Shown one piece after another: positions 7,187-60,720 of a DNA stretch of 64,000 bases. The stretch lies in assembly GCA_965228735.1 (NCBI GenBank), contig OZ245838.1:576001-640000 (forward strand), read 5' to 3'. The notes below the pieces were generated by a model that saw nothing but the letters and a program-made list of their open reading frames with translations, was not told where the DNA came from and did no database searches. This stretch comes from Planctomycetota bacterium (lineage in GTDB: Bacteria > Planctomycetota > UBA1135 > UBA2386). The position numbers were made by a program, and so were the translations under genes. How positions within the stretch are numbered: the first letter of the stretch is position 1; the number at the start of each line of letters is the position of its first letter.

Positions 7187-7822
7187 ATGAGAGGACATAT
7201 GAGAACCACCGTGCTCGCACTGCTATGCGGAGTCGTCTTTGGAGGCGTCCAAGCAATCGCTCAGGAGACCAAGAACGTTCCTGCGGCGAAGTCGACTACC
7301 CCGGCCACATACGTCGTCGGCGTGACGGGGATGACCTGAGGCGGTTGCGCCTCGGGGGTCCGTGAGACCCTCGCCAAGATCGCAGGCGTGAAGAGCGTCG
7401 AGATCGACCTCAAAGCCAAGACCGCGACCGTAGCCATGAAGAAGGGGGGGCTGACGCGCGAAGCTGTCGTCAAGGCGCTCGTGGACACCAAGTTCAAGGT
7501 GAGCTCCTTCGCGTCGGTCAAGGCTACGCGCATGACTCCGAAGGGCGTCTACGTCGTGGGCGTGACGGGAATGACTTGAGGCGGTTGCGCCTCGGGGGTC
7601 CGTGAGACCCTCGCCAAGATCGCGGGTGTGAATAGCGTCGAAGTCGACCTCAAGGCCAAGGCCGTGACCGTAGCCATGAAGAAGGGCTCGCTCACTCGCG
7701 AGGCTGTCGTCAAGGCACTTGCAGACACGAAGTTCAAGGTGAGCTCCTTCGCCTTGGTCGAGAAGAAACCGGCGGCGAAGAAGGCTGCCAAACCAGGCAT
7801 CAAGGCCGAGAAGAAGCTCTGA
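7187..7822 (+). CDS. Exported tandem-HMA selenoprotein (two GMT-U-GGC motifs; in-frame TGA at 7337 and 7577)
   Basis: One frame runs from ATG 7187/7199: signal peptide MRTTVLALLCGVVFGGVQAIA, two 80-aa repeats YVVGVTGMT*GGCASGVRETLAKIAGV.SVE.DLKAK..TV, and a Lys-rich tail. Each TGA sits at the first Cys of the HMA GMTCxxC motif and is followed by a SECIS-like hairpin. Confidence 0.88.
7353..7373 (+). promoter_or_regulatory. Putative bacterial SECIS element 1
   Basis: Stem CGGGGGTC/GACCCTCG with loop CGTGA; 21 nt lie between TGA 7337-7339 and the loop. Confidence 0.75.
7593..7613 (+). promoter_or_regulatory. Putative bacterial SECIS element 2
   Basis: Identical hairpin 240 bp downstream, after TGA 7577-7579. 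Confidence 0.75.
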
Positions 7823-18710: not shown

Positions 18711-20055
18711 CGCCCTCCGCATTCTGATCGTCGATGACGATGCGGCCATCTGTAGGTCGCTACAGATCCTCCTTGAAGAGCAGGGACACGCCGTCGCGAC
18801 GCGCACGAAGGGCGGAGCTGCCGGCGAGGCGGTGCGAGAGTTCGAACCTGACATCGTCTTCCTGGATCTCCGCTTGCCCGATCGCGATGGGTTGAGGGTT
18901 CTGAAGGACCTGACCGACGCCGCGGACGCGCCCGAGGTCGTCATGATCACGGGGGTTCAGGACATGAAGTCGATGATCGAGGCGATCCAGATTGGAGCAC
19001 TGGACTACGTCCGCAAGCCGCTGGCGGTAGAGGATGTGCTCGTGGCGATCGAGAAGTGTCGGCAACGGCGCCGGCAGCGGCGGCCAATGGCACAGCGGGC
19101 GGACCTCGTCCCGATCACTCCCGGTGCGGAGCACCCGGATGAAATCGTCGGGTCAGACCGACGTATCCTCGAACTCCTGAAGCAGGTCGGCCTTCTATCA
19201 AGGAGTCAGGTTACGGTCCTGATCGAAGGCGAGAGCGGCACGGGAAAGGAGCTTGTCGCCCGGGCGATTCATAACGCGTCATCGCCTGCTGAGCCCTTCG
19301 TGGCAATCAACTGCGCGGCGATCGTGCCCACACTCCTCGAGAGCGAGCTCTTCGGTTATGAGAAGGGGGCATTCACTGGAGCGGATTCCAAGAAGCAAGG
19401 GAGGCTCGAGGATGCAGGGGGCGGAACGCTGTTCCTCGACGAGATCGGCGACATGCCACTCGAACTCCAGGCCAAACTCCTACGGGCCTTGCAGGAGCGC
19501 ACATTCGAACGCGTAGGGGGCAACCACAGCGTCTCCTTCGAAGCGCGAGTGCTTGCAGCTTCCCATCGAGATCTCGGAGAAATGGTCGAGCGCGGTGAGT
19601 TCCGGGAAGACCTGCTATACCGCCTATCCGTTGCGCGGCTCGAAATCCCGCCGCTTCGAGAGCGTCCCGGAGACATTCGAATCTTGGCGACCCACCTTCT
19701 TCATCGGATCCGGCGGCGCCTGGAAAGCGAGGTCACTGCCATCTCTGAGACAGCGTTGAAGCAGCTCGAGTTGCACTCGTGGCCTGGCAACGTCCGCGAA
19801 TTGGACAACGTGCTCACCCGTGCCGTGGCGCTCGCTCGTGCAGACGTGATCGAGGAAGTGGATATTGCGCCGGCTAGGCCTTCTCACGAAGCCGTCGCCG
19901 AGGATGGTCCGGTCAAGAAGCTCTGGGAGGTCGAGCGGGATCACGTCCGCCACGCACTTGACAGTACGGGATGGAACATCACGCGAACGGCGCAGGTCTT
20001 GGACATTTCGCCAACCACGCTGCGGAAGAAGATCGTCGACTACGAACTGCGCTAG
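18691..20055 (+). CDS. NtrC/ZraR-family sigma-54-dependent response regulator
   Basis: Receiver domain (IVDDD, FLDLRLP), GESGTGKE, GAFTGA, WPGNVREL and a Fis-type HTH. Confidence 0.95.
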   Translation: MSQSQHDALRILIVDDDAAICRSLQILLEEQGHAVATRTKGGAAGEAVREFEPDIVFLDLRLPDRDGLRVLKDLTDAADAPEVVMITGVQDMKSMIEAIQIGALDYVRKPLAVEDVLVAIEKCRQRRRQRRPMAQRADLVPITPGAEHPDEIVGSDRRILELLKQVGLLSRSQVTVLIEGESGTGKELVARAIHNASSPAEPFVAINCAAIVPTLLESELFGYEKGAFTGADSKKQGRLEDAGGGTLFLDEIGDMPLELQAKLLRALQERTFERVGGNHSVSFEARVLAASHRDLGEMVERGEFREDLLYRLSVARLEIPPLRERPGDIRILATHLLHRIRRRLESEVTAISETALKQLELHSWPGNVRELDNVLTRAVALARADVIEEVDIAPARPSHEAVAEDGPVKKLWEVERDHVRHALDSTGWNITRTAQVLDISPTTLRKKIVDYELR

Positions 20056-20782: not shown

Positions 20783-21031
20783 CTACTTTTTCAGCTTCGC
20801 AAGGAACCGCTCCTGGTCCTCTTCGAACTCCTTCACGCACGGACGGCAGCAGAACTTGACCTCCTGGTTGCCGTAGACCTTGACGACGGGATCGCCCATC
20901 GAGCCGAGCTTGTTGTCGGTGACGATGCAGAGGTCACTCGTGTAGGGGATGACGTCTGCGCTTGGGCCCGAAGCGCACGCCGCGAACAGGACGAGTGCGA
21001 GAACGGGAAGCTTGGAACGGAGCGTTTTCAT
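20783..21031 (-). CDS. Small YHS/TRASH-like metal-binding lipoprotein
   Basis: Lipobox FAAC; CIVTDNKLGSMGDP...EVKFCCRPC. Confidence 0.8.
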   Translation of the reverse strand: MKTLRSKLPVLALVLFAACASGPSADVIPYTSDLCIVTDNKLGSMGDPVVKVYGNQEVKFCCRPCVKEFEEDQERFLAKLKK

Positions 21032-21063: not shown

Positions 21064-23166
21064 TCAGAAGGTCAAGACCAGGCCAAGGCCATAGCCATGG
21101 TCGGAGTGATACGAGGTCGAGAAACCCAGGTTCTGCGTGATCGTGTAATCGATGCCGACGAGCCACTCGAATTGCGTATTGGTGTCGTATTCGACGGAGG
21201 TGCCGATCCCAAGACGGTCGGTAAGCTGGAGCCCCTTGTCGAGTGAAAGTCGGAAGTCTCCCCGGCTGTCTACGCTGAGGTTTGACATCACGAGGTAGGG
21301 CAGGCGATAGCGCACGCCCGCGAATGCGCGACTCGTTGCCCCGTCACCATCAGCGTAGCGCCAGCCCAACTCGGTGGCGAAGTTCTGATCGATGTAGCGT
21401 GACCATCCGAAATCGACCTCGATGTTGTCCTCGTGTCCACCGTCTCGGTGGTCGTCGCCGAACGCCGATGGCAGTCCGATGTCCCACCGGGTGAAGAAGT
21501 CGTTCCGCCCCTTCATGAGCATGGCACGGCCCATGGTCATGTGGTTCTGTACCGTTGCATCGAAGAATAGGTAGGCCGGTTCGAGGAGCTTCGGGTCTAC
21601 GGTGGGTTGATACGTCGGATCCTGCTGGTAGCTGAACACGCGGGCCATGCCGGCATCCATGTGGTAGAGCAGGTGGCAGTGGAAGAACCAGTCTCCGCCC
21701 TCTTCGTCGGCGACCCACTCGATCGTGCGCTTGCCCATCGGGGGGACGTCCACGGTGTGCTTGAGCGGGGAGCGTTCGCCCTGCCCGTTGAGCACGCGGA
21801 AGAAGTGACCGTGCAGGTGCAGCGGATGGTGCATCATCGTGTCGTTGATGAGCTGGATGCGCAGCACCTCGCCCTTGCGGACGCGGATCGTCGAGTTCTC
21901 GGCCAAGGTCTCGTTGTCGAAGCCCCACAGATACCGGCGCATGTCGCCGGTGAGGCGCATGGTCAGCTCGCGGACTTCGGTGCCCGGTCCGGCGATGGTA
22001 GTGTCGGAGACTGCACGCAGCAGGCCGTAGGGCGCGAATGGGCGTTCCGCAGTAGCGGCTTCCAGCGCGCGCTTTGGCATCTGGCTTGCGAGCCCCGCGG
22101 CAAGCATCTCGTCCATCACGTATAGGTTCGCCCGCGGCGGGTCGACGGCCTCGATCAGCGGCCCATCCCCCAACAGCATCGAAGCGTGTCCGCTGCCATC
22201 TTGCGCCGTGGCTCGGATCTCGAGCGTGGACCGGGTCTCTGGCATGGTAACCACGACGTCGTACGTCTCCGCCATGCCGATGAGGAGGCGCCGGACCTCG
22301 ACCGGCTCTACGCGAATGCCGTCGCTGCCCACGATCGTCAGGTTGCCTTCGCCAGCGCCGAGGTAGAAGTAGGTCGAGGCCCCGGCGTTAACGATGCGCA
22401 GCAGGACGCGTTCACCCGGGCGGGCATCGAGCTTCAGTGCTCGCTTGCCATTGGCCAGGAACGCGTCGTAGCCCACGTCCGACAAGTCCATCGCCGGCAT
22501 GCGGTCCCCCTCGCGCTCGAAGTAATCCGAAACGGCGCCTCGCCGCCAGGCTCCGAGCAGCGACTGTTGCGTCCCCTTCTTCACCGAATACCACTCGCTG
22601 CCGCGCATCAGCCAGCGCATGACCGTGGTCGGATCATCGTCGGTCCAATCGGCCAGGACGACGACGTGCTCACGATCGAACGCAACATCGGGCTTTCTGG
22701 GTTCGATGACGATCGCACCCTGGACGCCCAGTTGCTCCTGCAGCCCTGTGTGCGAGTGGTACCAATAGGTGCCCGATTGCCGCAGCCGGAACTCGAATGT
22801 GTGTTCGCCGCCAGCAGGGATTGGAGGGGTGGTCAGGTATGGGACTCCGTCCATTTCGTTGGGCACGAGCAGCCCGTGCCAGTGGATCGAAGTCTCCTCG
22901 GATGGTAGCCGGTTCTTGACCGTGATTTGGGCGAGGTCGCCTTCTCTGAATCTCAAGACCGGGCCAGGGGAGGTGCCGTTGACGGTGAGCACGGTAGTCG
23001 CTGTGCCCGCGGGTGCGCCCGGAGTCTCCGCGATTACGAGCTCGTAGCGGACGACGTCCTTGCCCGAGGGAACCTCAGAGCCCGTGGCCTGCGCAGTGCA
23101 CTCTTGGGCTGCCGTAAACATGATGAGTGCAAAGACGGGGAGCAGGCTCCATGGAGGTCGGTTCAT
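21064..23166 (-). CDS. Multicopper oxidase (CopA/PcoA type) with C-terminal beta-rich CopB-like extension
   Basis: HWHG, WYHSH, HPLHLHGH and HCHLLYHM copper motifs; signal peptide; C-terminus ends in ...GLVLTF. Confidence 0.93.
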   Translation of the reverse strand: MNRPPWSLLPVFALIMFTAAQECTAQATGSEVPSGKDVVRYELVIAETPGAPAGTATTVLTVNGTSPGPVLRFREGDLAQITVKNRLPSEETSIHWHGLLVPNEMDGVPYLTTPPIPAGGEHTFEFRLRQSGTYWYHSHTGLQEQLGVQGAIVIEPRKPDVAFDREHVVVLADWTDDDPTTVMRWLMRGSEWYSVKKGTQQSLLGAWRRGAVSDYFEREGDRMPAMDLSDVGYDAFLANGKRALKLDARPGERVLLRIVNAGASTYFYLGAGEGNLTIVGSDGIRVEPVEVRRLLIGMAETYDVVVTMPETRSTLEIRATAQDGSGHASMLLGDGPLIEAVDPPRANLYVMDEMLAAGLASQMPKRALEAATAERPFAPYGLLRAVSDTTIAGPGTEVRELTMRLTGDMRRYLWGFDNETLAENSTIRVRKGEVLRIQLINDTMMHHPLHLHGHFFRVLNGQGERSPLKHTVDVPPMGKRTIEWVADEEGGDWFFHCHLLYHMDAGMARVFSYQQDPTYQPTVDPKLLEPAYLFFDATVQNHMTMGRAMLMKGRNDFFTRWDIGLPSAFGDDHRDGGHEDNIEVDFGWSRYIDQNFATELGWRYADGDGATSRAFAGVRYRLPYLVMSNLSVDSRGDFRLSLDKGLQLTDRLGIGTSVEYDTNTQFEWLVGIDYTITQNLGFSTSYHSDHGYGLGLVLTF

Positions 23167-23346: not shown

Positions 23347-24060
23347 CTACTTGCCGTTTCGGGCCTTCGGACGGGACTGTTCGGCGGTCGCCTTGTCAAT
23401 CGTCGAGATGAATGTGGAGGGCGTCTTGTCGAGCTTCTTTGCGCAGCTTGAACAGCAGATGCGGATCAAGCGACCGGCGATGACGACATCCTTTGGTTTC
23501 CCCATGCTGTCCAGGGGCTCGTTGCTGACTACGCACTTCTGCAACGGGTAGCTCTTTCCCTGCGCAGAGCTCACGGCGGCGTCCAGCTGCTTCAGGTACT
23601 TCCCGGGTGACTTCAGCGCTGTTGCCTTCTCCTTCGCATCAGCCAACAGGATGAGCCGGTTGCCGAGGACCAGGTTGACAGGCTTCTTCGGGAGCTTCTT
23701 GCCCGAGACGACCGATTTCGACATCGGGTAGATGGGGCGCTGGTCTGCGATGACCTTCTGGTCGAGCTTGGCCAAGCTGCTGTCGAGGTCCTTCTCAAAG
23801 CTGCCGGTGCAACCACCGCAGCAGAAGCGGACTTCGCGCCCTCGGTAGACCTTCACCAAGGGATCGCCCATGGTTCCTAGCTTCTTGCCGGAAACTGGGC
23901 AGGTGGCGAACGGGTAGGGGTCACCAGTTCTCGAGGTCTTGGTGGTCGGTTTCTGGTGAGGCGCCGGGTGGTCGTGGTGGCCGCCATGCTGCGCGGCCGT
24001 CGGTGCGCTCAGTAGCGCAATCGCAGTTACGGCGCAGATCGCGGAGCGGAGCAATGACAT
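23347..24060 (-). CDS. Exported triple YHS-like repeat protein with His-rich N-terminus
   Basis: Signal peptide; QHGGHHDH; CPVSG...FCCGGC and CVVSN...ICCSSC. Confidence 0.8.
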   Translation of the reverse strand: MSLLRSAICAVTAIALLSAPTAAQHGGHHDHPAPHQKPTTKTSRTGDPYPFATCPVSGKKLGTMGDPLVKVYRGREVRFCCGGCTGSFEKDLDSSLAKLDQKVIADQRPIYPMSKSVVSGKKLPKKPVNLVLGNRLILLADAKEKATALKSPGKYLKQLDAAVSSAQGKSYPLQKCVVSNEPLDSMGKPKDVVIAGRLIRICCSSCAKKLDKTPSTFISTIDKATAEQSRPKARNGK

Positions 24061-24178
24061 CTTGGGTTTCCTTCTTTTGGGCGGGTTTGGATGAGTGCTG
24101 GCGTACATCGCCATCGTGATGTTGGAGCCGTCGCGGCAGCGTTGGGCTGGCGCGCGCAAGGTGATTCCGACCCGCTTC

Positions 24179-24194
24179 AGCAAGGCGCGTGCCG
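24179..24194 (-). promoter_or_regulatory. sigma-54 promoter of the YHS-MCO operon
   Basis: Minus strand CGGCACGCGCCTTGCT. Confidence 0.72.
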
Positions 24195-24282
24195 TCGGAC
24201 GACCAAGGTGAGGTGTGATCCCAGGCGGAAGAAGGAGACTCGATGATGGCGAACAGCCGGTACGGTCACGGGCCTCAACGTC

Positions 24283-24837
24283 ATGACCGATTCCGAAAGC
24301 CATAAGCGACTCTTGATCCTGCTCGCCAGTCGTCGCCAGTTTCTGGCGTTTCTCGAGCGCCGTGTAGCATCGCGGGATGAGGCCGAGGAGATCCTGCAGG
24401 ACGCGTTTGCGCGTGGCGTCGAGCGCGTCGTCGACGTAGGCGAGGAGGGGAACGTCGTTGCCTGGTTCTACCGGATCCTCCGAAATGCCATCGTGGATCG
24501 GCATCGCCGGCGGTCCGAGGGGCACCCAGGCCTAGAGATTGACTCCGACCTCCTCCAGGTAGCTGAGGATGCCGAACGGCAGCGCGACGTCTGCGTCTGC
24601 ATCCAGGGGTTGTTGCCGCTCATCCATCCGGACTATGCAGAGCTTGTCCGGCTCGTAGATCTGGAGGGCCGGTCCGTCGGGGCGGTCGCCAAGGATCGCG
24701 GCGTCAGTGCTGGGAGTGCCCGCGTTCGCCTGCACCGCGCTCGAGCGGCTCTGCGGCGGGAAGTGCAGCTCACCTGTCGCACATGTGCCGAGCACGGCTG
24801 CCTCGACTGCAGTTGCGCGAGGCCGCCGCAGGCCTGA
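24283..24837 (+). CDS. CorE-like metal-sensing ECF sigma factor
   Basis: sigma2 (AEEILQDAF, WFYRILRN) and sigma4 (RVRLHRAR); internal CVC and C-terminal CRTCAEHGCLDCSC as in Myxococcus CorE (ECF44); no adjacent anti-sigma. Confidence 0.88.
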   Translation: MTDSESHKRLLILLASRRQFLAFLERRVASRDEAEEILQDAFARGVERVVDVGEEGNVVAWFYRILRNAIVDRHRRRSEGHPGLEIDSDLLQVAEDAERQRDVCVCIQGLLPLIHPDYAELVRLVDLEGRSVGAVAKDRGVSAGSARVRLHRARAALRREVQLTCRTCAEHGCLDCSCARPPQA

Positions 24838-24861
24838 CGGGGCGTCCTCTGGCACGGTAGG

Positions 24862-24887
24862 TGTAACGTTCGCCCAGTCTGGTCGTC
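24862..24887 (+). promoter_or_regulatory. ECF-type promoter upstream of the Cu ATPase
   Basis: TGTAAC-N16-CGTC, matching the generic ECF AAC/CGT pattern. Confidence 0.65.
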
Positions 24888-24917
24888 AGCGTGGACATGC
24901 AAAGCGAACGGAATCCC

Positions 24918-27182
24918 ATGTCAGATGAATCTCACCACGACGCCCCAGAGGCCAAGACCTGCTGCCATGGGGGCGAGCACGCCAACGCCGACGGGCATGG
25001 TCATGGCCTCCATCCTGCTAGAGGTCACACCGCGGGGGCCGGTCGACCAGCGCCCCCTGACACCTACACGTGTCCCATGCACCCGGAGATCGAGCAGGCA
25101 GGGCCGGGAACCTGCCCCATCTGCGGCATGGCGCTCGAGCCCGTCGATGCGAGCGCTGAGGCGGACGATACCGAGTACCGCGACATGCGGCGCCGCTTCG
25201 TCTGGAGCGCGGTGCTGGCCGTCCCGCTGCTCGTGCTTGCGATGGGGGACATGGTGCTCCCTGGCGCTCCGATCCATGGACTGTTTGGCGGGTTCTCACG
25301 TTGGCTGGAGCTGGCGTTCGCGACGCCGGTGGTGTCCTGGGCGGGCCTACCGCTGTTGGTGCGGGGCTGGGAATCCGTCAGGCGTTGGCAGCTCAACATG
25401 TTCACGCTGATTGGGCTCGGCGTCTCCGTCGCGTACGTCTACAGCGTGCTGGCGCTCGTGGCGCCCGATTGGTTCCCCGAGGGCTTCCGTGGAGCGCACG
25501 GCGTGGCCGTCTACTTCGAGGCCGCCGCGGTGATCGTGGCGCTCGTGCTGCTCGGTCAGGTCATGGAGCTGCGCGCGCGCAGCAGCACCGGCGCCGCGAT
25601 CCGGGCGTTGCTCGATCTGTCGCCGAAGATGACTCGGCGCATCGGCTCCGATGGCGCAGAGGAGGAGGTCGCTGTCGAGTCCGTCCGAAAGGGGGATCGC
25701 CTGCGAGTTCGTCCCGGCGAGGCCGTTCCGGTCGATGCCATCGTCGTCGAGGGCGGCAGCACCGTTGATGAGTCGATGGTCACGGGCGAGCCGGTCCCCG
25801 TGGCCAAGGCGGCGGGCGATCAGGTGATCGGCGGAACGGTCAACACGACGGGGAGCCTCACCATCGAGGCCGAGAAGGTCGGCGGCGAAACGCTGTTAGC
25901 ACAGATCGTCCAGATGGTCGCCGATGCACAGCGAAGCCGAGCACCGATCCAGCGGCTTGCCGATCGTGTCGCCGCCTGGTTCGTTCCCATCGTGGTCGCG
26001 TGTGCGGCGCTCGCGTTCGTCGTCTGGAGCGTTTGGGGGCCGGAGCCCCGCCTCGCCTATGCGCTGCTCAACGCGGTTGCCGTGCTCATCATCGCCTGCC
26101 CGTGCGCGCTCGGCCTGGCGACGCCGATGTCGATCATGGTGGCGACGGGGCGGGGCGCGCAGTTGGGCGTGCTGTTCCGCAACGCACAGGCGATCGAGAG
26201 CCTTCGTGCCATCGACACATTGGTCGTGGACAAGACCGGCACGCTGACGCTCGGACAGCCGAAACTGACTAACGTGCAGGTCGTCAGCGAAGCCGGAGCA
26301 GACGAGTCCGCCGTCTTGCGACTGGCGGCGAGCCTGGAGACGCGCAGCGAACACCCACTCGCGCGCGCCATCGTCGAGGGTGCGAGTGAGCGCGAGATCC
26401 AGTTGTCGGGCGTCGATGGGTTCGAGTCCGTGACGGGCAAGGGCGTCATGGGCCGGGTCGAGCAACAGGATGTCGCCCTTGGCAATCTCGCGTTGATGGA
26501 AAAGATCGGCGTGGCCGCGTCGGACGCGGACCGTACTCGGGCCGCCCGGCTGCAGGGTGACGGGGCCACGGTCATGTTCTTGGCCGCGAGTGGGCAGCTG
26601 ATCGGCATGCTGGCAGTCGCGGACCCGATCAAGGACAGCGCGCCGGAGGCCATCCGCGCCCTGCACGGTGCCGGTCTGCGCGTCGTGATGTTGACCGGCG
26701 ACAACCGGGCAACGGCCGAAGCCGTCGGGCGAGAACTGGGCATCGACGAGGTGATCGCCGATGCTCTGCCCGATCAGAAGCTCGCGACGATCGAGCAACT
26801 CCAGGAAGGCGGCGCCAAGGTGGCGATGGCCGGCGATGGCATCAACGACTCGCCTGCGCTCGCGAAGGCGGACGTGGGCATCGCGATGGGAACAGGAACG
26901 GACGTCGCGATGGAGAGCGCCGCCGTGACGCTCGTCAGGGGCGACCTGCGAGGCATCGTGCGTGCGCGCGAGCTGAGCGCAGCGACGATGCGGAACATCA
27001 AGCAGAACCTCCTGTTCGCGTTTGGCTACAACGCCGCCGGTGTGCCTTTGGCTGCGGGCGTACTGTTTCCGTTCACGGGTTGGCTGTTGAGTCCGATGAT
27101 CGCGGCCGCTGCGATGAGCCTGAGCTCGGTGTCGGTTATCGTCAACGCGCTGCGGCTACGTGCGTTCGGGTCGGCTGGTTGA
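24918..27182 (+). CDS. copA: P1B-1 copper-translocating P-type ATPase
   Basis: His-rich N-terminus; YTCPMHP; TGEP, CPCALG, DKTGT, SEHP, GDGIND, YN and MSLSS motifs. Confidence 0.96.
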
Positions 27183-27342
27183 TGAGGCCGCGCGCGCTGA
27201 GCCGCCACGCGTGGCGGTGCCCTCGGCCGCCATGTGTTTGGCCGGACAGCGACGGCGCTGACAGGTTTCGTTGCCGGGATGGCCGTGCGAATTGGGCTGT
27301 CCCCGTGGTGGTCGGTGGGCGGTGATCGAGGGTTGCGCGGCG

Positions 27343-27358
27343 AGGCACGCACGTTGCT
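27343..27358 (+). promoter_or_regulatory. sigma-54 promoter
   Basis: AGGCACGCACGTTGCT upstream of the second YHS-repeat gene. Confidence 0.68.
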
Positions 27359-27373
27359 GTCTTTGTGTCGCGA

Positions 27374-28137
27374 TGCGTTGCAATAATGGTTGTCCAGCAC
27401 GCTGGTCTCGGCGGTGCTTCTGGCGCTCGTTCGCACGGTCCCTTTCGGTCTCGGGGGTGGCAATCGTGCTCGCCGTGTTCCTTCTTGCGTGCGCGGCGCC
27501 CCGTGGCTCGGGTGCGGGAGGAGTTCGCAACCGCATTGCGCCGAGTGCGTTTCGAGTCTCTCGGCCTTACTTCAGGATCGGTGACCCCTACCCGTTCGCC
27601 ACCTGCCCAGTTTCAGGTGAGGACTTGGCCGTGACCAAGACTGGGCTCATCAAGTCCTACGGCGGTCGCGAGGTGCGGTTCTGTTGCAGTCAGTGTTCGC
27701 GGTTGTTCGGTCAGGATCTGGTGAGCAGTTTTGCAGAGGTTGACCGGTGGATCGTAGCGGACCAGGAGGGGATCTACGCGATGAGGGATTCAGTCGTGAC
27801 CGGGAGGCAGTTGCCGGCACGCCCCGTCGAGTTCGTCGTAGGCAACCGGCTCGTCAGGGTTGATTCGAGCGACGAGAGGGAGGCCGTCATGAAGGGGCCG
27901 AGCAAGTTCCTCGATGCTCTGAGCAGGGCTGCCGCGCGTTCCCAGGCAGACGGCTACGGCCTCAGTAGCTGCCCCGTGAGTGGTCGTCCGATAGGCCTGC
28001 CTGCGCCCCCGTACCTGGAAGCTGTTGTCGCGGGTCGCCTGATTCGGGTTTGTTGTCCAGACTGCCTTGCGAACATCGATGAGAATCCCGCGAAGTACAT
28101 TGCGGTTGTCGATGCAGCGCGCAAGTCGCCGGGGTAG
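27374..28137 (+). CDS. Triple YHS-like repeat lipoprotein, paralog of 23347-24060
   Basis: LLAC lipobox; GDPYPFATCPVSG identical to the paralog; FCCSQC and VCCPDC. Start uncertain (27374 or later). Confidence 0.75.
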
Positions 28138-28162
28138 CAAGTCATGTGCTAGCTGCTCGGCG

Positions 28163-28177
28163 TGGCATGGTGGTTGC
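28163..28177 (+). promoter_or_regulatory. sigma-54 promoter of the Sec-HMA lipoprotein gene
   Basis: TGGCATGGTGGTTGC, near consensus, about 70 nt before ATG 28249. Confidence 0.78.
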
Positions 28178-28248
28178 GGATGGCCTTGTGCAGCCCTGCG
28201 TTTCGGGCTTGCGTCTCGGTTCATCCAACAACACCCAGAACCCTAATC

Positions 28249-28551
28249 ATGAAGCATCTCTGGATTGCCTGCGCAGTCATCGTCGCGCTGTCATTCGCTG
28301 GCTGCAGCACGGTCAAGCACGACTCTCAGCTCACGTCTACCCAAGTCCACCTTGTCCTGGACAAGACGCCGACTTGAGGCGGTTGTGCCGCCACCGTGCG
28401 TGGTGCCGTGACCAAGCTCCCTGGCGTGTCGGGAATCGAGGTCGAGCCTGGTTCGGCCGATATCGTCGTCAGCCTTGACCCCAATGCGACAACTGTAGAG
28501 CAGTTGCTTGCGGGAATGGACGCCGCTGGGCAGTCGGCAAAGCGCAAGTAG
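28249..28551 (+). CDS. HMA-domain selenolipoprotein (KTPT-U-GGC; in-frame TGA at 28375)
   Basis: MKHLWIACAVIVALSFAGC lipobox; ...VHLVLDKTPT*GGCAATVRGAVTKLPGVSGIEVEPGSADIVVSLDPNATTVEQLLAGMDAAGQSAKRK then TAG; 100 aa with read-through. Confidence 0.85.
28381..28413 (+). promoter_or_regulatory. Putative bacterial SECIS element 3
   Basis: GGTTGTG-C-CGCCAC[CGTGC]GTGGTG-C-CGTGACC; 17 nt lie between the TGA and the loop; the loop shares CGTG with SECIS 1 and 2. Confidence 0.68.
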
Positions 28552-28778
28552 GGGGCCCGCGCAGCGCTGGGGCCGCGAGGTCTCGCCGCTGCGACTGCGG
28601 GGCTACTTACATGCATGTCGCCGCTTTCGGTCCGAAGCCTGATCACTCTGGATTGTGTCGGCGAGACCTCGCCGCTGCGTGAGTCGGCTGGAGTTGCGAG
28701 GCGATAGGGAGCAAGTCATGCCGCGCGGCTGGGATTCATCGGCGGGATGCTGTGCATCCCGGAGCGCTTCCAGGAGGC

Positions 28779-30098
28779 ATGATGAGAAATCGTGAAGTAG
28801 GGTCACAAGGGCTCTTGCGGCGCATTGCGGCTTACGTTCGGAGTCGCCTATGGCTGCAGGTTCTCATAGGGATGGCGCTGGGCGTGGGCGTTGGCTTGGC
28901 CCTCTCCCCCTCGGGAGGTGGTCTCTTTGCGGAGAGCGGCGCGAGACTGATTGCGTGCTGGCTGGCCTTGCCGGGTCATGTCTTCATGGCGCTGATCCAG
29001 ATGATGGTCGTGCCGCTGGTGCTCTCGTCGGTCATCCTGGGGATCGCGTCTGGTGGGTCAGCGGAGTTTCTCAAGCGCGTGGGGCTCCGAGTTCTTCCCT
29101 ACTTCGTAGCGACGACCTGTATCGCGGTGCTGATCGGGATCACCCTTGCTACCCTGATCGGGCCAGGTCACCTCGTCGATGGTGCGTCGTTCGATGGTGT
29201 CACCGATCAGGGGGGCATGCCAGTCGAGACGGGGGCTTCATCAAGACTGTTGCCCGAACGCATTGCAGAGATCATTCCGAGCAATCCGTCGAGCGCTCTT
29301 CTTCACCGAAGCATGCTGCAGTTGGTGGTGTTCGCGATGTTGGTTGGCGTCGCGCTGGTAGGGCTCAGATCCGAGTCCCGCGAACTCCTCATTCGGATTC
29401 TCCAGGCGACGCAGGAGCTTGCACTCAAGGTTGTCGGGTGGGCGATGGCGCTTGCACCAGTTGCGGTTTTTGGGCTCTTGGCGCAAGTGATGACGCGTAC
29501 TGGAGCGAATGCCCTCGCGGGGCTTGGGGCCTACGTGGCGACCGTCCTTCTTGGACTCGTAGCACTGATCGTCGTCTACTCCTTGCTCGTGCGGTGGTTG
29601 GGGAAGCAGGGGCCGTTGCAGTTTCTCGCCCGCATTCGTGATGCGCAGTTGCTTGCGTTCTCCACCTCGAGTTCTGCCGCCGTTATGCCGCTGTCGATGA
29701 AGATCGCAGAGGAAAGCCTGGGGGCGTCACGACCGGTCGTGCAGTTCGTCATTCCGCTTGGAGCGACCGTGAACATGGACGGAACAGCGCTCTATCAGGT
29801 GACTGCTGCCGTATTCATGACCCAGGTGTTTGGTGTGGACCTCAGCCTCGGTGAGATGGCGTTGCTGGCTTGCACGACGATCGGTGCTTCGATTGGATCG
29901 CCGAGCACTCCTGGAGTCGGCATCGTCATCCTGGCATCAGTGCTTCAGGGCATCGGGGTCCCGGCCGGTGGAGTGGCCATGATCTTGGGAGTCGACCGCA
30001 TCCTTGATATGTCGCGAACCGCGGTGAACGTGACGGGAGACTTGGCGGCGACCGTCGTGCTGGAGCGGTTGCTCCAGACTCCGGGACGGCGACATTGA
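28779..30098 (+). CDS. Dicarboxylate/amino acid:cation symporter (DAACS, GltP/TcyP family)
   Basis: AFSTSSSAA, GATVNMDGTALY and GVDRILDMSRTAVNVTGD signatures; AGGAGG RBS. Confidence 0.95.
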   Translation: MMRNREVGSQGLLRRIAAYVRSRLWLQVLIGMALGVGVGLALSPSGGGLFAESGARLIACWLALPGHVFMALIQMMVVPLVLSSVILGIASGGSAEFLKRVGLRVLPYFVATTCIAVLIGITLATLIGPGHLVDGASFDGVTDQGGMPVETGASSRLLPERIAEIIPSNPSSALLHRSMLQLVVFAMLVGVALVGLRSESRELLIRILQATQELALKVVGWAMALAPVAVFGLLAQVMTRTGANALAGLGAYVATVLLGLVALIVVYSLLVRWLGKQGPLQFLARIRDAQLLAFSTSSSAAVMPLSMKIAEESLGASRPVVQFVIPLGATVNMDGTALYQVTAAVFMTQVFGVDLSLGEMALLACTTIGASIGSPSTPGVGIVILASVLQGIGVPAGGVAMILGVDRILDMSRTAVNVTGDLAATVVLERLLQTPGRRH

Positions 30099-30205: not shown

Positions 30206-31342
30206 CTATGATCCCCCGCCGCACTGCCGGATCAGTCTCTTGAGCACTCGTTCGACTGCGGCGCTCTCAGCCGCAAGTTGGGATCTCACGATGGCCTCTG
30301 GATGCGCCGGAGTGACGATGTCGCCGCCGTCTCGTCCGCCGTTGTGCATGTTCACCTGAAACGATGACTGGCCCGGTTGCGCTTCGCCAATCACTCGGGA
30401 TCCCATTCCCGACAGGCAGAACTGAATACGCCCACCGTTGCACCGTCGATCGGAGTCCACGTGGCCGAGCACTGCACCTACGAATGCGAGCAGCCTGCTT
30501 GTTGCTCTGTGGAGGTCGCTCGGCGAGAGGAAGAACATGGGAGTCATCATCCCGTCGTGATTGTGCGAGTGGCCTTGGACGATTCCGACGCAGATAGCAA
30601 TGGAGAGGTCCGTTCCGATCCAGCCACGGAGCATGGGGGGCTCCTGGTCGCGGTTTTGGAGCGCAATTCCGTCCGGCTCGGTCGAATGGGTCGGGCGCGC
30701 GTCGAGGAGTCTGGTTGGGCCGGCGACAAGAAGGTCGCCAGCCACATCGGGGAGGTGATCGAAGACGACGTCTTCGTTGAGCATGAGCGGCTGGCTCGGG
30801 GTCCACGAGATCGCGAGCCGAGGTGGATCGCTTCCGAGGTAGTTTGAGTTGGTCGATGGGACGACCTTGGACAAGTTGCTGCTAACTCGGCGGTCAATGT
30901 CTCCGACCGGTGGGGCGGAGCTCCATTGCAACAGGCTTCGGACAAGCTCCTTCTGCAGCTCAATGGAAGACGAGCACAGCTTGTAGGAGAGTCCGCCTTG
31001 CCACGCGCCAACCTCGGCGATGAATGCAGACTGATCCGATTCGGGGTCGGCGCTTGTCCTGAAGACCAGGATGTCCTTGTTGTGCCGCTTGGCTTCGGCG
31101 AACTCCTCCGCCGTGGCGGATCGCCCGCTGTCTAGTTTCGCCCCGTATCGTTGGCCGAGAAGGAGGATCATTGCATCGGCTTGCGCAACGCCGCGAAGGC
31201 AAGCTCCTCGAGGCGTTGCCCCGTCGGTTACAAAGTCCTCCGCGCGAATGAGGTCGACGCCAACGGACTCGCACGCCGCTACGGCAGCCGCGCGCATGTC
31301 CTCCATGCCACTCATGACGGAACTGATGAAAACGGACGTCAT
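30206..31342 (-). CDS. DUF4062 (TIR-like/NDT-like) domain protein
   Basis: VFISSVMSGMEDMRAAA...CLRGVAQADAMILLLGQRYG...SATAEEFAEA. Confidence 0.85.
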   Translation of the reverse strand: MTSVFISSVMSGMEDMRAAAVAACESVGVDLIRAEDFVTDGATPRGACLRGVAQADAMILLLGQRYGAKLDSGRSATAEEFAEAKRHNKDILVFRTSADPESDQSAFIAEVGAWQGGLSYKLCSSSIELQKELVRSLLQWSSAPPVGDIDRRVSSNLSKVVPSTNSNYLGSDPPRLAISWTPSQPLMLNEDVVFDHLPDVAGDLLVAGPTRLLDARPTHSTEPDGIALQNRDQEPPMLRGWIGTDLSIAICVGIVQGHSHNHDGMMTPMFFLSPSDLHRATSRLLAFVGAVLGHVDSDRRCNGGRIQFCLSGMGSRVIGEAQPGQSSFQVNMHNGGRDGGDIVTPAHPEAIVRSQLAAESAAVERVLKRLIRQCGGGS

Positions 31343-34396: not shown

Positions 34397-37375
34397 CTAT
34401 CCAGTTCCTCGCGCAGCCATGAGGTCGAGTATCGTGTTCTCCAGCACCAGAGTCCCCATCGAAGGCAGCCACCTTTCGCGGTCTTCGAGCAGGTGTCGGG
34501 CTACGGAGAGGACGGCTTCTCGGTCATCTCCACGATCCGACGCAAGCTCAGGGCTGCGGCCAAGCGCTACAGCAGCTCGTCGGTGCCTGACTCCGCCAGC
34601 TGCGAGCAATCTTCCGGCAGGCGTTGGGACACCGAAGCGTAGGTGCTCGGGGAAGTCCGCAACGGCCTTAGACAGTTCGAGGTTATTCGCGTCGAGCAGC
34701 TTCCTTAGCAGCCCGATGCCCTGCTCGACGGCTACCTGGAGGACGTAGCTGACGACCCGGGAATGAACGCCGAGCATGGTGTCGATATCGGTTTCCGTCT
34801 GGCTGGCGATCTCCGCCAGAGATCGGCCGTCGATCCACGCCTCCAAGATCCTGGCGAAACTCGACCGCGATGGGGGGGATCCCCGGTAGGCCTCGTCGAG
34901 TGCCTCGGCTACCTCGGGAAGGCCCCACGCCCAGACCAGCAGTGTCTCTGTCAACTCCGGATCGGTTGGCGTTTCGATGTCATCCCAGCGTTGTCGCATG
35001 GGTAACAGATTGACCTCCACCGACTCCAGCATTCGTGCTCGCGTACCCGTTTCTCGGATCCATGCGAGTCTCCCCGCTCCCTTGATGGCTGCCACGCGTT
35101 GAGCACGCAGCTCGAACACCTGTTTCATCAGTGCCGTGGTCGTTTGTTGAGCTTGGCGGGCCGCGAAAGTCTGGCTCGAAAGCTCTCCGGCCATGCGCAC
35201 GAGTTCATCTTCGCCTAGCTCCTCGGCGGCAAGATCGATAAGCGTTGCATCGATGCCGTCGATCAGAGTGTGAAGCGCCGTCGCACCCTCAAGGATGTCG
35301 TTTGTGAGGGTGATGCTCCGCTGGCTCAGTGCTGACTCGACGCGCCCCATCAACTCGAGCAGTGCCCCGGAGACGCGTTCGCCTGGCTGTTGCTCGGCCA
35401 CGGGGGCGACAAGTTGCCATTGTCCAGGGTTGGCGCAGATGACCAGCCCCTTGGTGGTTGCCCCAGCTCGTCCAGCGCGCCCGACGAGGTTCTTGATGTC
35501 GCGCGCGAGCAGGTTCTCTGCTGCTCCGTTGGGGCCACGACGCTGCACGGAGTAGAGGACCAACGTCCTGATCGGCAGGTTGACGCCTTCCGCCAAAGTG
35601 TTGGTGCAGATGGCAAGGCGAACGTCTTTGTCGCGAATCAGCGATTCCACGACTTCCCTGCTCTCTTGCGGAATGTCTCCATGATGCAGTATGGCTCCTG
35701 CCGCAAGTGTTCGTGTGCCCACCCAGGAAGCGCCGTATTCCAGGGTGAAGTGCTCAACTGCCGACTGCAGCTTCACCGCATCCCCGACGAACTGCATGGG
35801 GGCGGGCAGGGGCAGCAGGCTCGCCAGTTGTTGGAGGAGTTCATGAGCGAGCCCTACGGCTCCCTGAGTGCCTCTCTTGTTGGCCGCGAACACGGCAACG
35901 GACCCCATCGAGAGCGACTTCCGTGCTGCTGCGATGGCTTGGGCCTTCACAGATTTGAAAGGGTATGTGTTCAGCCGGTTCGTAGTGGGATTGCGGTGGC
36001 GAAAGTCATCACGGCTCAGGAATCGTTCGATAGAGAACGTGGATGCGGCTTGGTGTGGGTGAAGCTGAAGCGCGACCGTCATGGCGGCGCCTTTGCCAGC
36101 TACCTGCAGCGCTGCGAACTCTGCGAGAGCCGGGCGGTAGTCACTGCGAACGACGGTCTGATCCGTGCCGCCAAGCCACACGTTGATCTCCTCGATGTTC
36201 GGGACGATCGCGGAAACGAAGACGAACTTTGGCGGGCCTTTCTCGCGGGCGCGCATGCGGGCGAGCAGCAACTCAAGTCCGACCCCGCGCGCCTCACCAT
36301 CGAGGAGGTGCCCTTCGTCGCAGATGACGAGGGATACTCGGGAGTAGAAGTCCGGCTCTGCGCTGAGCAGGCCCGATAGTGCCTCAGGCGTTGCGACGAT
36401 CGCGCGTGCTGCATCGAGGTCTCTGACTTCTTCGCCGGTGGGCACGGTACCTCCATACGCACACCTGGTGGGAAGGCCCATGTTGCTCAAGCGCTTTGCA
36501 AGGCTGCCGCGAAGCTCTGCCGCGAGCGAGCGAAAGGGGACGAGCAGGATGGCCACATCCTGCGGGTTGCGGTTGAGGTGGTGAAAGAGGAGGGTCTCAG
36601 AGAGAGCTGTCTTTCCCGCGCCTGTCGGCATCTGTAGGGAGAATGAGGCCACGCTTCCAAGCAGGCCGCTCCTAATGGCATCGATTTGCGAGGGGAAGAA
36701 ATCCCAGGTAGGTGGGGTCCGGTTGAGGAACGACCGCACTAGCGGGTCCCAGAATCCCGATTCGCCATCGGGTAGAACTGCACGGACGTTAGTTCGCTCG
36801 AACTTGGAGAGGACCCGCCCGAATAGCCGCCAGCCGATCCACTCACCGGAATCTGTGTGCAGTGCAGATGCCTCCTTCTCAGTCGCGTACTCGCCCTCCG
36901 CCCGAAGCACCTCAAGGTTCCCTCTTCGAACGCCGCCAACAAGGGTACGCACACGTGCCGACCTGATCGCCGGTGGACGTGAGAGCAGCTCGTAGCACGC
37001 GAGCTGAATGTCATCGAGGGCACCCGGGTCGCAGGTCTTCAACGTGACGTAGGCCGATGCAGAGTAACCGCCGAAGTAGAACGCGGCCGCAGCAAAGATG
37101 GCGGCTTCGGCCGCCATGATACCGGAGTAGGCGTTTGCCCGAGCTTCTCCTACGCCGCCGGCCTGAGTGATGGCGTTGCCCAGGCGTGACCAGTCGACCG
37201 GATCGCGGTAGGGCTCACGGAGCCTGTCGAAGAGCTCGCCGACGAGGGAAATGTAGTAGTCGTCGCCTCGTGACCTGATGTAGCTCAGCTGTAGTGGCGG
37301 CTGCGAGGAGCCGAACCGTTCCACGTGATGAAGGGCGTCAGCGTCACCGACCCACTTTGCCAGAGTTGCCCTCAC
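34397..37375 (-). CDS. hamB: Hachiman HamB-like Ski2/DEAD-box helicase
   Basis: MPTGAGKT, VATPE, DEGH, SAI, HHG, TNTLAEGVNLP and GRAGR; coupled to hamA by a GTGA overlap. Confidence 0.85.
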   Translation of the reverse strand: MRATLAKWVGDADALHHVERFGSSQPPLQLSYIRSRGDDYYISLVGELFDRLREPYRDPVDWSRLGNAITQAGGVGEARANAYSGIMAAEAAIFAAAAFYFGGYSASAYVTLKTCDPGALDDIQLACYELLSRPPAIRSARVRTLVGGVRRGNLEVLRAEGEYATEKEASALHTDSGEWIGWRLFGRVLSKFERTNVRAVLPDGESGFWDPLVRSFLNRTPPTWDFFPSQIDAIRSGLLGSVASFSLQMPTGAGKTALSETLLFHHLNRNPQDVAILLVPFRSLAAELRGSLAKRLSNMGLPTRCAYGGTVPTGEEVRDLDAARAIVATPEALSGLLSAEPDFYSRVSLVICDEGHLLDGEARGVGLELLLARMRAREKGPPKFVFVSAIVPNIEEINVWLGGTDQTVVRSDYRPALAEFAALQVAGKGAAMTVALQLHPHQAASTFSIERFLSRDDFRHRNPTTNRLNTYPFKSVKAQAIAAARKSLSMGSVAVFAANKRGTQGAVGLAHELLQQLASLLPLPAPMQFVGDAVKLQSAVEHFTLEYGASWVGTRTLAAGAILHHGDIPQESREVVESLIRDKDVRLAICTNTLAEGVNLPIRTLVLYSVQRRGPNGAAENLLARDIKNLVGRAGRAGATTKGLVICANPGQWQLVAPVAEQQPGERVSGALLELMGRVESALSQRSITLTNDILEGATALHTLIDGIDATLIDLAAEELGEDELVRMAGELSSQTFAARQAQQTTTALMKQVFELRAQRVAAIKGAGRLAWIRETGTRARMLESVEVNLLPMRQRWDDIETPTDPELTETLLVWAWGLPEVAEALDEAYRGSPPSRSSFARILEAWIDGRSLAEIASQTETDIDTMLGVHSRVVSYVLQVAVEQGIGLLRKLLDANNLELSKAVADFPEHLRFGVPTPAGRLLAAGGVRHRRAAVALGRSPELASDRGDDREAVLSVARHLLEDRERWLPSMGTLVLENTILDLMAARGTG

Positions 37376-58038: not shown

Positions 58039-60720
58039 ATGCTCGTCTCCATGTCATCGGGATCCGGCAACCTCGTGTCCTACCACAGGCAGGACATCGA
58101 GCGCGAAGGTGACGAACTTCGCTTTCTGCGCTACCTGCTGCAGGACGGTGCGGTCCCCGTCTTTGGGGGTGTGGGGGCAGACGAACTGGATCTGCTTGGT
58201 GAGAAGGTCACGTTGCAGAGGTTCTCGGACATGAGTAGGGCGATTGGCCCTCAAGCCGAGCAGTTGCGTCAGAACTACGGGGACGACAGTGATGCGGCTT
58301 GGGACATGACCATCAGCGTCCCGAAGAGCGTCAGCGTCGTTGCTCTGCTCGGTAGCGACGACGTGCGCCGAACTGTGCAGGGGGCGGTGAACGAGACGGT
58401 TGACTCACTGGTCCGACACATCGAAGACCACGTGGTGAAGGCGCGGAGAGGAAAGGGTGGGATGCGCTCCGAACAGGTTGCCGGACTCGTGGTCGTGAAG
58501 TTCTGGCACATCGAGTCTCGCCACGGGGATCCGCAGCTGCATTGCCACGTTGTGATCTTCAATGCCGGCCTGAGACAGGACGGTACCTGGGGTTCCTTGC
58601 AGAGCCGTTCGCTATACGAGGCGAAGATGGCTTTGGGCGCGATGGCGACGTCCGAGTTGGCCTCGCGGCTCCGGGCCGAAGGGCTCGCGGTCCGCAAGAC
58701 GAAAGACGGTTTCGAGCTCTGCGGGATTCCAGAAGAGGTCCTCAAGGAGTTCTCGAAGGCGCGGGCGAAGCTCCTGCAGAAGGCGGGGCAGTTGGGATAC
58801 GAGTCGGCGAAGGCCCGCGAGGCGATCCAGCTACGGATCCGGCCGAGCAAGATCGAGCGTTCCTTCGACGATCTGGTCGGCGAGTGGCGGGCGACAGCGT
58901 CGCGGTATGGCGTGACGAAGCAGAGCATCAGCAGGCTGTTCGGATGGCGGGCGAAGGGAAACCTGGACCGCAGCCGGACAAATGCGCGGCGAGCTGCCAG
59001 CCGGGCGGTCGGTCAGGTCGCCGCGCAACATTCCTCCTTCCGCGAGACCGACGTTCAGAGGGTCGCCGCATATGCATGCCGAGGTGGTCATGCGCGGATC
59101 GGCGATGTCGTACGGGCGGTGGATCACGTGTTGCAGAACGATGAGCGGGTTCACAGGCTGGGCGAGCGACGCGGCAGCGTGCTCTACACCACTCGCGAGA
59201 ACTACGGGGTGGAGGTGGACGCCCTGGCGAATGCCGAGGCAATGCACAAGGCGGCGGGGCACCGCGTTCGCGAAGAGCAGCTCGACAAGGTGGCTCGGCG
59301 TCTCGGGCTGGATCGGGAGCAGCGAGTAGCGTTGAAGCACCTCGCTGGGACGAAGGGCGCTATCAAGGTCCTCAAGGGGGCGGCCGGGACCGGCAAGACG
59401 CGGCTGCTTGCCGCGCTGGTGGCGGCGGCAGATGCGGAGGGGCGACGCGTGATCGGGCTTGCTCCGACAGGTGTGGCGCGCGAGGAGCTGGCGGCCGGAG
59501 CGCGGATCGAGAGCACGTTCACCGTGGACCGGTTCGAGCGCCTGTCGCATTCGGTGCCGGCAAGAGCGCTGCGCCATCACGTGCGCATGCTCCTGCGGGT
59601 TTTGGTCAACCCGAGGAGTATGACCTGGAACCCGTCGCACATGCAGGTTCGGAAGGGCGACTACATCGTCGTCGATGAGGCTGCGATGGTGGGATTCCGC
59701 AAGCTGGCCAAGGTGATCGATAGGGCCAAGCAAGCGGGGGCGAAGGTCATCCTGTGTGGTGACGAGCGCCAGCTTGGTCCTGTGCTTTCAGGCGCCTCTC
59801 TGTTCTCAAGGCTCGCGGATCTGGTCGGCCACATCGAGCTCAAGAAGAACTGGAGGCAGCGGGAGCAACCGTGGATGCAGGCTCTCAGCGGTCACGTCCG
59901 CAGTCGCGAGGCCGACGAGGCGCTTCGCCTGCTCGCAGAACACGACAGACTCCACGTCTGCGGTGGGGAGGAGAGTCCGATCAACGCCTGTGTCGATCGC
60001 TACATGTCCTATGGGGCCGGTCAGAGGCGAGACACGCTGATCATCGCATCGACGCGCTCGCAAGTTACTCGGCTGAACGAGCAGGTGCAGAAGGCCCGAA
60101 TCGAGCGTGGCGAGCGGGTCGGTGCGCCCGTGGAACTCGGTGAGCGCGGCACCAAGCTGTATCGGGGCGCTGGAGCTTCTCCGTTGTGCTTCCACCTCGG
60201 TGACCGCGTCGTGCTGCGCCGCAACTCGTTCCGAGTTGACGTCACTGCGTTCGGTGGGCGGGGGCGCTTGTGGGCAAAGAAGCCCGGTGGCGTAGTGAAC
60301 GGAGACTTCGGAGAGGTCGTTGCTGCGAGCGGTCGTCATCTGCGCGTGCGTCTTGATCGAGAGGGGCGCAACGGGGCCGAACTGTTTGCCGACGTCGATC
60401 TGCGCGTGTATCCGCACGTCGAGCTAGGATTCGCGGCAACGATCCACCGTGTCCAGGGCAAGACCGTGGATCGAGCACTCGTGCTAGCCGATCCGGGGAA
60501 TCTGGACGCAGAACTCAGCTACGTGGCGCTGACCAGGCAGGCGCACGACCTCCATGTCTACACGCACGAGATCGCGGTTGGAGAGGGGCTCGCCGAGTTG
60601 TCCCGCAGCATGCAGCGTAGTCGGAGGGAGGAGCTTGCGACGACGATCCAGGACCAGCTGCAGCTGGAAGATCAGGCGTGGCGTCAGTCCCAGTCGCCGG
60701 GATTGGGGGTGAGGCTGTGA
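58039..60720 (+). CDS. MOBF (TrwC/TraI-like) relaxase-helicase
   Basis: WDMTISVPKSVS, HIESRHGDPQLHCH (HUH), EFSKAR; RecD-like GAAGTGKT, VDEA, GDERQL, TIHRVQG.T and YVALTR. Confidence 0.93.
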   Translation: MLVSMSSGSGNLVSYHRQDIEREGDELRFLRYLLQDGAVPVFGGVGADELDLLGEKVTLQRFSDMSRAIGPQAEQLRQNYGDDSDAAWDMTISVPKSVSVVALLGSDDVRRTVQGAVNETVDSLVRHIEDHVVKARRGKGGMRSEQVAGLVVVKFWHIESRHGDPQLHCHVVIFNAGLRQDGTWGSLQSRSLYEAKMALGAMATSELASRLRAEGLAVRKTKDGFELCGIPEEVLKEFSKARAKLLQKAGQLGYESAKAREAIQLRIRPSKIERSFDDLVGEWRATASRYGVTKQSISRLFGWRAKGNLDRSRTNARRAASRAVGQVAAQHSSFRETDVQRVAAYACRGGHARIGDVVRAVDHVLQNDERVHRLGERRGSVLYTTRENYGVEVDALANAEAMHKAAGHRVREEQLDKVARRLGLDREQRVALKHLAGTKGAIKVLKGAAGTGKTRLLAALVAAADAEGRRVIGLAPTGVAREELAAGARIESTFTVDRFERLSHSVPARALRHHVRMLLRVLVNPRSMTWNPSHMQVRKGDYIVVDEAAMVGFRKLAKVIDRAKQAGAKVILCGDERQLGPVLSGASLFSRLADLVGHIELKKNWRQREQPWMQALSGHVRSREADEALRLLAEHDRLHVCGGEESPINACVDRYMSYGAGQRRDTLIIASTRSQVTRLNEQVQKARIERGERVGAPVELGERGTKLYRGAGASPLCFHLGDRVVLRRNSFRVDVTAFGGRGRLWAKKPGGVVNGDFGEVVAASGRHLRVRLDREGRNGAELFADVDLRVYPHVELGFAATIHRVQGKTVDRALVLADPGNLDAELSYVALTRQAHDLHVYTHEIAVGEGLAELSRSMQRSRREELATTIQDQLQLEDQAWRQSQSPGLGVRL

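Follow-up and report, generated by a model that had tools for sequence, protein, structure and literature searches.

The gene at positions 28249–28551 of the analysed window (the whole 64,000-nucleotide stretch of Planctomycetota bacterium DNA) is very probably a real gene recoded for selenocysteine (Sec), as judged from its sequence and from those of its relatives. The reading of its product, P0001, as a Sec lipoprotein with one HMA domain, anchored on the periplasmic side of the membrane and binding Cu(I) through the U43 selenium and the C46 sulfur, is a prediction with a somewhat better than even chance of being correct. The features discussed below are collected in Table 1.

Table 1. Coordinates of the features discussed, numbered from the first letter of the window.
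Feature	Position	Strand	Basis
Tandem two-Sec gene: second Sec-HMA gene, tandem GMT-U-GGC domains, hairpin loop CGUGA, different subfamily	7199..7822	+	sequence, fold, tree
Multicopper oxidase; then small YHS-like lipoprotein gene (20783-21031)	21064..23166	-	profile
CopA-type P1B ATPase; CPC, YN and MxxSS motifs, N-terminal HMBD, no HMA match	24891..27182	+	profiles, motifs
YHS/TRASH-like Cys-rich ORF; no Pfam/NCBIfam match	27271..28137	+	label by eye
Predicted sigma-54-type -24/-12 site, TGGCATGGTGGTTGC	28163..28177	+	motif enrichment, rpoN
Sec-HMA lipoprotein gene (P0001), 100 aa	28249..28551	+	sequence, PF00403, AlphaFold HMA fold
Lipoprotein signal peptide with lipobox FAG-C19 at its end	28249..28305	+	sequence pattern
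Metal-site codons U43-G-G-C46, TGA first	28375..28386	+	sequence and family alignment
Predicted SECIS hairpin; 6-bp stem 28389-28394/28400-28405, loop CGUGC 28395-28399	28389..28405	+	fold, covariation, controls, published consensus
MobF/TrwC relaxase of the 79-kb element	58039..60720	+	profile

Translation of the frame from ATG 28249 to TAG 28549–28551, with the in-frame TGA 28375–28377 read as U, gives MKHLWIACAVIVALSFAGC...KTPT-U-GGC-AATVRG...SAKRK-stop. The first-pass annotation of this DNA had picked out a lipobox FAGC, the stretch KTPT-TGA-GGC-GGT-TGT and the terminal TAG, and all of them are present. A basic N-region is followed by a hydrophobic stretch and then by the lipobox Cys, which is the order by which lipoproteins are recognized. 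The claim that the remainder is HMA-like is confirmed by a profile search with U read as C (Pfam HMA, PF00403; 38.9 bits vs. a cut-off of 24.8, residues 42–94), the match falling nearly all 3′ of the TGA. AlphaFold models residues 31–100 as an HMA fold (pLDDT 96–97) with the order beta-alpha-beta-beta-alpha-beta (E31–37, H44–55, E60–64, E71–76, H83–92, E97–99), in which the ligand pair is located where helix 1 begins.

The host genome is a single 7.19-Mb contig (G+C 69%, 93% complete), in which selA, selB and selD score above their profile cut-offs, selD itself carrying one in-frame TGA. The tRNA-Sec (99 nt) is the sole tRNA with a UCA anticodon called at the default threshold. Since TGA is the commonest stop codon (4324 of 6406 long frames) and the anticodon of tRNA-Trp is CCA, the code is standard, with no genome-wide recoding. 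Decoding of the UGA as Trp or Cys, via a changed code or a suppressor tRNA, is extremely improbable: nothing was found in its favour, TGA ends most long frames, the only UCA-anticodon tRNA called is that of Sec, and the position aligns with Cys and bears a SECIS-type hairpin. The selA gene was found in 286 of the 301 genomes of the class, in all 104 high-quality ones and in 48 of the 49 genomes with the TGA form of the lipoprotein family; being near-universal in the class, it does not discriminate between genomes with and without this form.

A scan of the host genome gave 40 candidate TGA sites with coding-like flanks and a hairpin. Of ten such candidates picked by eye, six score above the Pfam cut-off of a known selenoprotein family (deiodinase-like, Rdx/SelW, MsrA, two AhpC/TSA and Thioredoxin_7). 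About two dozen further plausible Sec sites are mainly of the thioredoxin fold, and several have no recognized family, for example GHPLGCT-U (three loci) and NW-U-CIG and IT-U-CLS in repeat proteins. A separate locus (L155:227-844, minus strand; host contig near 1926–2543) encodes an exported protein of 205 aa in which two TGA codons lie in frame (GIGG-U-AAA and GLG-U-MGT), each with a hairpin after it. Having no partner Cys and no Pfam match, this protein appears to be another Sec protein of two domains.

A profile of 13 family members was searched in the 301 genomes of the class. By hand counts, 83 matches at E ≤ 1e-15 were obtained, 79 with one TGA and 4 with none; they are spread over 52 genomes, the TGA form occurring in 49. 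Among 401 genomes of the phylum, the sole strong match outside the class is a Cys form. The host genome holds two more lipoprotein paralogs, with PS-U-GGC and PY-U-GHC. Pattern-seeded scans with a single protein had given three loci in genome contigs and two Cys CopZ loci in metagenome contigs. The survey of homologs for Sec/Cys pairs proposed in the first-pass annotation was performed on 57 distinct fetched sequences of at least 50 bits, and the first ligand is TGA in 50 and Cys, at the same position, in 7 (a gene identical in the genome G157 and at locus L004 was counted once; loci L095 and L096, where the motif was mis-picked, were left out of the counts, TGA standing at the site in both). 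In the 50 distinct Sec sequences the TGA is always located at the first ligand position. Membrane anchoring, also proposed earlier, is supported by C19, which is unchanged in 13 of 13 aligned homologs, and by a lipobox pattern in 46 of the 50 Sec forms. In a quick tree the Cys forms have long branches and are scattered among the Sec forms, a pattern suggestive of changes from Sec to Cys.

The predicted SECIS hairpin starts 17 nt past the UGA (−8.1 kcal/mol in a folded 33-nt window) and agrees with the SECIS consensus published in the Figure 2 legend of PMC13188914. In an alignment of 13 sequences, 92% of cells are paired with 8 double-sided changes, a level reached in 0 of 500 shuffles, the test being inflated by the relatedness of these sequences. 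By a hairpin rule that was fixed, but composed after inspection of the same sequences, 50 of 50 family Sec forms pass vs. 1 of 7 family Cys forms, and over all sites 58 of 58 Sec sites vs. 2 of 30 Cys sites. Among controls the rule is passed by 5–7% of synonymous recodings of the gene and by 118 of 2855 TGA stops of long ORFs. The 76-nt stretch as a whole folds no better than shuffles (z +0.93), and whole-region folding of three windows of the gene gave no signal (z +0.93 to +0.06); the fold signal appears only in the short hairpin compared across homologs. The hairpin of the host SelD gene has a different loop (GGGCA) and fails the rule.

The first-pass annotation had preferred recoding over decay, and this preference is strongly supported, since the TGA is kept, the frame is conserved and a hairpin follows the TGA. 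The opposite reading, in which the TGA is a true stop and the locus a pseudogene or a gene for a 42-residue lipopeptide, is largely refuted and is considered very improbable. It could draw on TGA being the main stop codon of the host, on gene callers cutting such genes, and on the protein collection, which contains 52-aa post-TGA fragments of the paralogs and neither a full nor a truncated product of 28249–28551. A search of this collection gave Cys forms along with truncated fragments, which is what the cutting of Sec genes would produce. Against a true stop, 50 divergent sequences continue past the TGA in an open, conserved frame that finishes at a common end; moreover, the codon is confined to the first ligand, seven relatives have Cys there, and the hairpin tracks the TGA.

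Further support for recoding as the reading of this TGA is provided by the tandem gene at 7.2 kb, which has two Sec codons. The two window genes had been described as strongly diverged with TGA at the same motif position; the position is indeed shared, and over the HMA domain they are 29–31% identical. In the quick tree (branch supports by SH-aLRT) the lipoprotein family (57 rows) is split from the GMT-type domains, including those of the tandem gene, with a support of 97, and P0001 falls in a subclade of 15 rows, also with 97. Because a well-supported branch separates the two genes, they constitute independent evidence, as the first-pass annotation had argued. Its proposal that both form one module fared worse: no such module is shown, the genes lying 20 kb apart, in different operons, on one element.

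In the window, the lipoprotein gene is surrounded by copper genes. The first-pass annotation placed it downstream of copA; it is indeed downstream, but the YHS-like ORF intervenes, stopping 111 nt ahead of ATG 28249 (the true start of this ORF is probably further downstream than annotated). The Cys-rich YHS/TRASH-like exported proteins encoded at 20783–21031, 23347–24525 and 27271–28137 have no Pfam or NCBIfam match; in relatives, these proteins are again encoded next to genes for multicopper oxidases and CopA. The host also has a separate Cys CopZ-CopA pair.

With fetched flanks of 1.5–8 kb, CopA or a multicopper oxidase is found near 11 of the 15 members of the subclade, in four to five gene orders, these copper-linked rows including near-identical cassettes (95–98%). 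Among the other Sec forms such a gene is near 3 of 35, each of them the tandem partner of a subclade gene. Since 32 of the 35 non-subclade Sec forms have no copper gene in their flanks, the basic role of the family may not be copper-specific. At four loci (L038, L102, L103, L108) from four genera, two tandem Sec-HMA lipoprotein genes stand with a divergent CopA gene, the arrangements being 95–98% identical. A chromosomal family locus adjoins a gene for a 730–880-aa protein in 7 of 41 loci, with no metal genes, and the remaining family members occur in unrelated contexts. The gene for the conserved 730–880-aa protein immediately precedes the chromosomal Sec-HMA lipoprotein genes (L037:5221-7749, L040:8074-10659, L047:9155-11344, L111, L112, L114 and L120); its product has a C-terminal FRGPDAQGRPHFQVLHS motif and no Pfam match in the three copies scanned. 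The loci L018, L026, L045, L100 and L033 encode related HMA proteins that are exported and have the spacing U-x-x-x-C (UAVGC, UGAGC, UGVNC), together with one U-G-Q-U lipoprotein.

The whole window belongs to an integrated element of 79 kb, which extends beyond both of its ends (genome positions 564,827–643,706). The element is inserted at tRNA-Gly, its two boundaries being marked by perfect 50-bp direct copies of the 3′ end of tRNA-Gly, and carries genes for a tyrosine integrase and a MobF relaxase as well as a TraD-like gene. Its cargo comprises CopA, the multicopper oxidase, several CzcA/CusA-type RND systems, further P-type ATPases and the tandem two-Sec gene. In G157, a genome of another genus of the same family, the element is 99.97–100% identical vs. 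70–84% for chromosomal segments; the host copy has an extra 1.4-kb multi-copy insertion (621352–622773). The element also carries a HamA-like gene beside a Ski2-like helicase gene (window 34397–38184, minus strand), which we take to be a Hachiman-type defence pair, and a DUF4062 gene at 30206–31342.

A sigma-54 promoter had been proposed from TGGCATG-N4-TTGC about 70 nt upstream of the gene. The site starts at 28163 and ends 71 nt ahead of the ATG; in the form TGGCAT-N5-TTGCG it fits the GG-N10-GC pattern of sigma-54 sites, with rpoN present and a gene downstream. TGGCAY-N5-TTGC occurs 33 times in the host genome vs. 4–17 times at six other spacings, many of the sites lying just ahead of ORFs, and the host has two rpoN genes. 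This enrichment and the two rpoN genes make the site at 28163 more probably a real one than a chance match. The proposed promoter is thus plausible for this copy but does not appear to be a feature of the family: at 57 homolog loci, which overlap in part, the 450 nt ahead of the gene contained no sigma-54-type site. The closest ortholog (L006) ends a TolC-oxidase operon, and a sigma-54-type site stands ahead of this operon, 3.35 kb upstream of the ortholog. A sigma-54 activator is encoded at 18610–20055; that it controls the site at 28163 is a guess. A second TGGCAT-N5-TTGC at 22075 (plus strand), which falls within the oppositely oriented multicopper oxidase gene, is probably due to chance.

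A sigma-70 scan of 24000–29000 found no promoter, and a terminator scan of the same region gave 4 terminator-like sites vs. 2.4 expected. Two estuary metatranscriptome assemblies contain contigs over 28206–28466 and 28329–28479, both of which run across the TGA with no change listed there, the two coding differences listed being synonymous. One assembly has four short pieces in the oxidase and YHS genes and none over the rest of 6.3–26.2 kb. These contigs are not counted as evidence because of low depth, small word shares and possible DNA carry-over.

Among known systems, MerP (TIGR02052; PDB 1osd and 1afi) is, like P0001, a single exported HMA domain. MerP 1osd is the top PDB match of the P0001 model (Foldseek rmsd 1.7 Å over 71 columns, 31% identity), and the MerP profile is matched by 13 of 13 family members, P0001 reaching 32.8 bits vs. 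a cut-off of 92.55. Unlike MerP, P0001 has a lipobox in place of a cleaved signal, UxxC in place of CxxC and no Met at −2. The mer context of MerP is missing, as neither merT nor merA was found in the host genome (no PF02411 match for MerT; no TIGR02053 match over the cut-off for MerA). CopZ/Atx1 proteins (NF033795, NF033794, TIGR00003) share with P0001 the HMA fold, the two-ligand loop and the proximity to CopA. P0001 differs from them in its lipoprotein signal and Sec, and scores 22–30 bits vs. cut-offs of 62–95 (CopZ: 30.5 and 22.6 bits vs. 91 and 95 for NF033795 and NF033794). CopZ is cytoplasmic. The Met of GMxCxxC is missing in 50 of 50 Sec forms of the family, and the G-Y/F of HMA loop 5 is mostly G-E/Q/K. 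Because the Met is absent and the loop-5 aromatic mostly replaced, metal preference is not transferable from CopZ or MerP.

The UxxC of the ATPase family TIGR01525 lies in its N-terminal HMA domain. Table 1 of PMC13188914 lists this cation-transporting E1-E2 ATPase as a Sec-containing UxxC protein, along with a MerT-type selenoprotein and NF041115 ('putative mercuric reductase', UxxU). NF041115 is a small HMA-like selenoprotein, as P0001 is, with weak matches in 13 of 13 family members. P0001 has one Sec (UxxC) vs. two (UxxU) and scores 30.5 bits vs. a cut-off of 95, matching the 74-position model from position 13 only, over the domain. The TIGR01525 ATPase and the NF045683 MerT/CopZ fusion resemble P0001 in having Sec in heavy-metal proteins, and the ATPase shares the UxxC motif. 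Both are membrane transporters, in contrast to the free-standing 100-aa lipoprotein P0001, which gave no NF045683 match at E ≤ 0.001 (cut-off 375); 3 of 13 family members match it weakly. No stand-alone HMA lipoprotein is among the 119 families of Table 1 in PMC13188914, term searches of PMC13326102 and PMC12013277 returned no mention of the lipoprotein family, and full-text literature searching gave no paper on it. The word 'undescribed' of the first-pass annotation therefore holds for the lipoprotein architecture but not for Sec in HMA domains, which is already catalogued: compared with the Sec-HMA kinds known so far, the lipoprotein is a variant whose architecture is apparently new.

For P0001 the following sequence of events could be proposed. 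SelB would almost certainly read the predicted hairpin and insert Sec at U43, and the product would very likely be exported and lipidated, so that the predicted Se/S two-ligand site would face the periplasm. There, with a probability a little above even, P0001 could capture Cu(I) released by CopA and either buffer it or act as its donor for the multicopper oxidase or for RND efflux. Sec would be useful at such a site because selenolate is ionized at low pH and grips soft metals more tightly than thiolate.

P0001 could also be a real selenoprotein that serves as a broad soft-metal scavenger (Hg, Ag, Cd) of the MerP kind and is located on copper islands only secondarily. Its top structural and NCBIfam matches are to MerP, an exported HMA protein, the element bears RND systems and further P-type ATPases besides the copper genes, and most family members have no copper neighbours. 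The score against the MerP profile is nevertheless far below the cut-off, the 93%-complete genome gave no MerT match and no MerA over the cut-off, and the neighbours in the subclade are CopA and multicopper oxidases, so this role is considered unlikely.

In section 7 of PMC13188914, bacterial selenoproteins are for the most part regarded as redox enzymes, likewise most of those with UxxC as redox proteins, and a direct metal-ligand role of Sec in detoxification is an open proposal. UxxC might accordingly be a redox centre (a selenenyl-sulfide) of a periplasmic thiol/selenol relay, metal binding being incidental. The wealth of thioredoxin-fold Sec candidates in the host, the loss of the canonical HMA Met and aromatic residue in the family, and the conserved chromosomal locus with the 730–880-aa neighbour and no metal genes are consistent with a relay. 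Its probability is nonetheless rated low, since P0001 has the fold of HMA and not of thioredoxin, and its subclade recurs in copper operons. Cu(I) binding at the predicted Se/S site remains the preferred reading.

A wider picture is tentative and, on the whole, doubtful. This class of Planctomycetota may possess a suite of exported seleno-metallochaperones, one branch of which, carried on mobile copper islands, would serve CopA, on its periplasmic side, as a natural Se-ligated Cu(I) chaperone, partnered with the soluble two-Sec HMA protein of the same element. Such a resistance module would be workable only in Sec-decoding hosts.

The Sec-HMA lipoprotein family represents a small soluble-domain test case, in which a single fold occurs naturally both with Sec and with Cys. 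Common as the family is in the class (TGA form in 49 of 301 genomes at E ≤ 1e-15), gene callers truncate or overlook it, so that it is absent from inventories of copper islands in these bacteria. An element of this kind, found in two genera, would tie the spread of metal-resistance genes to the Sec machinery of the host.
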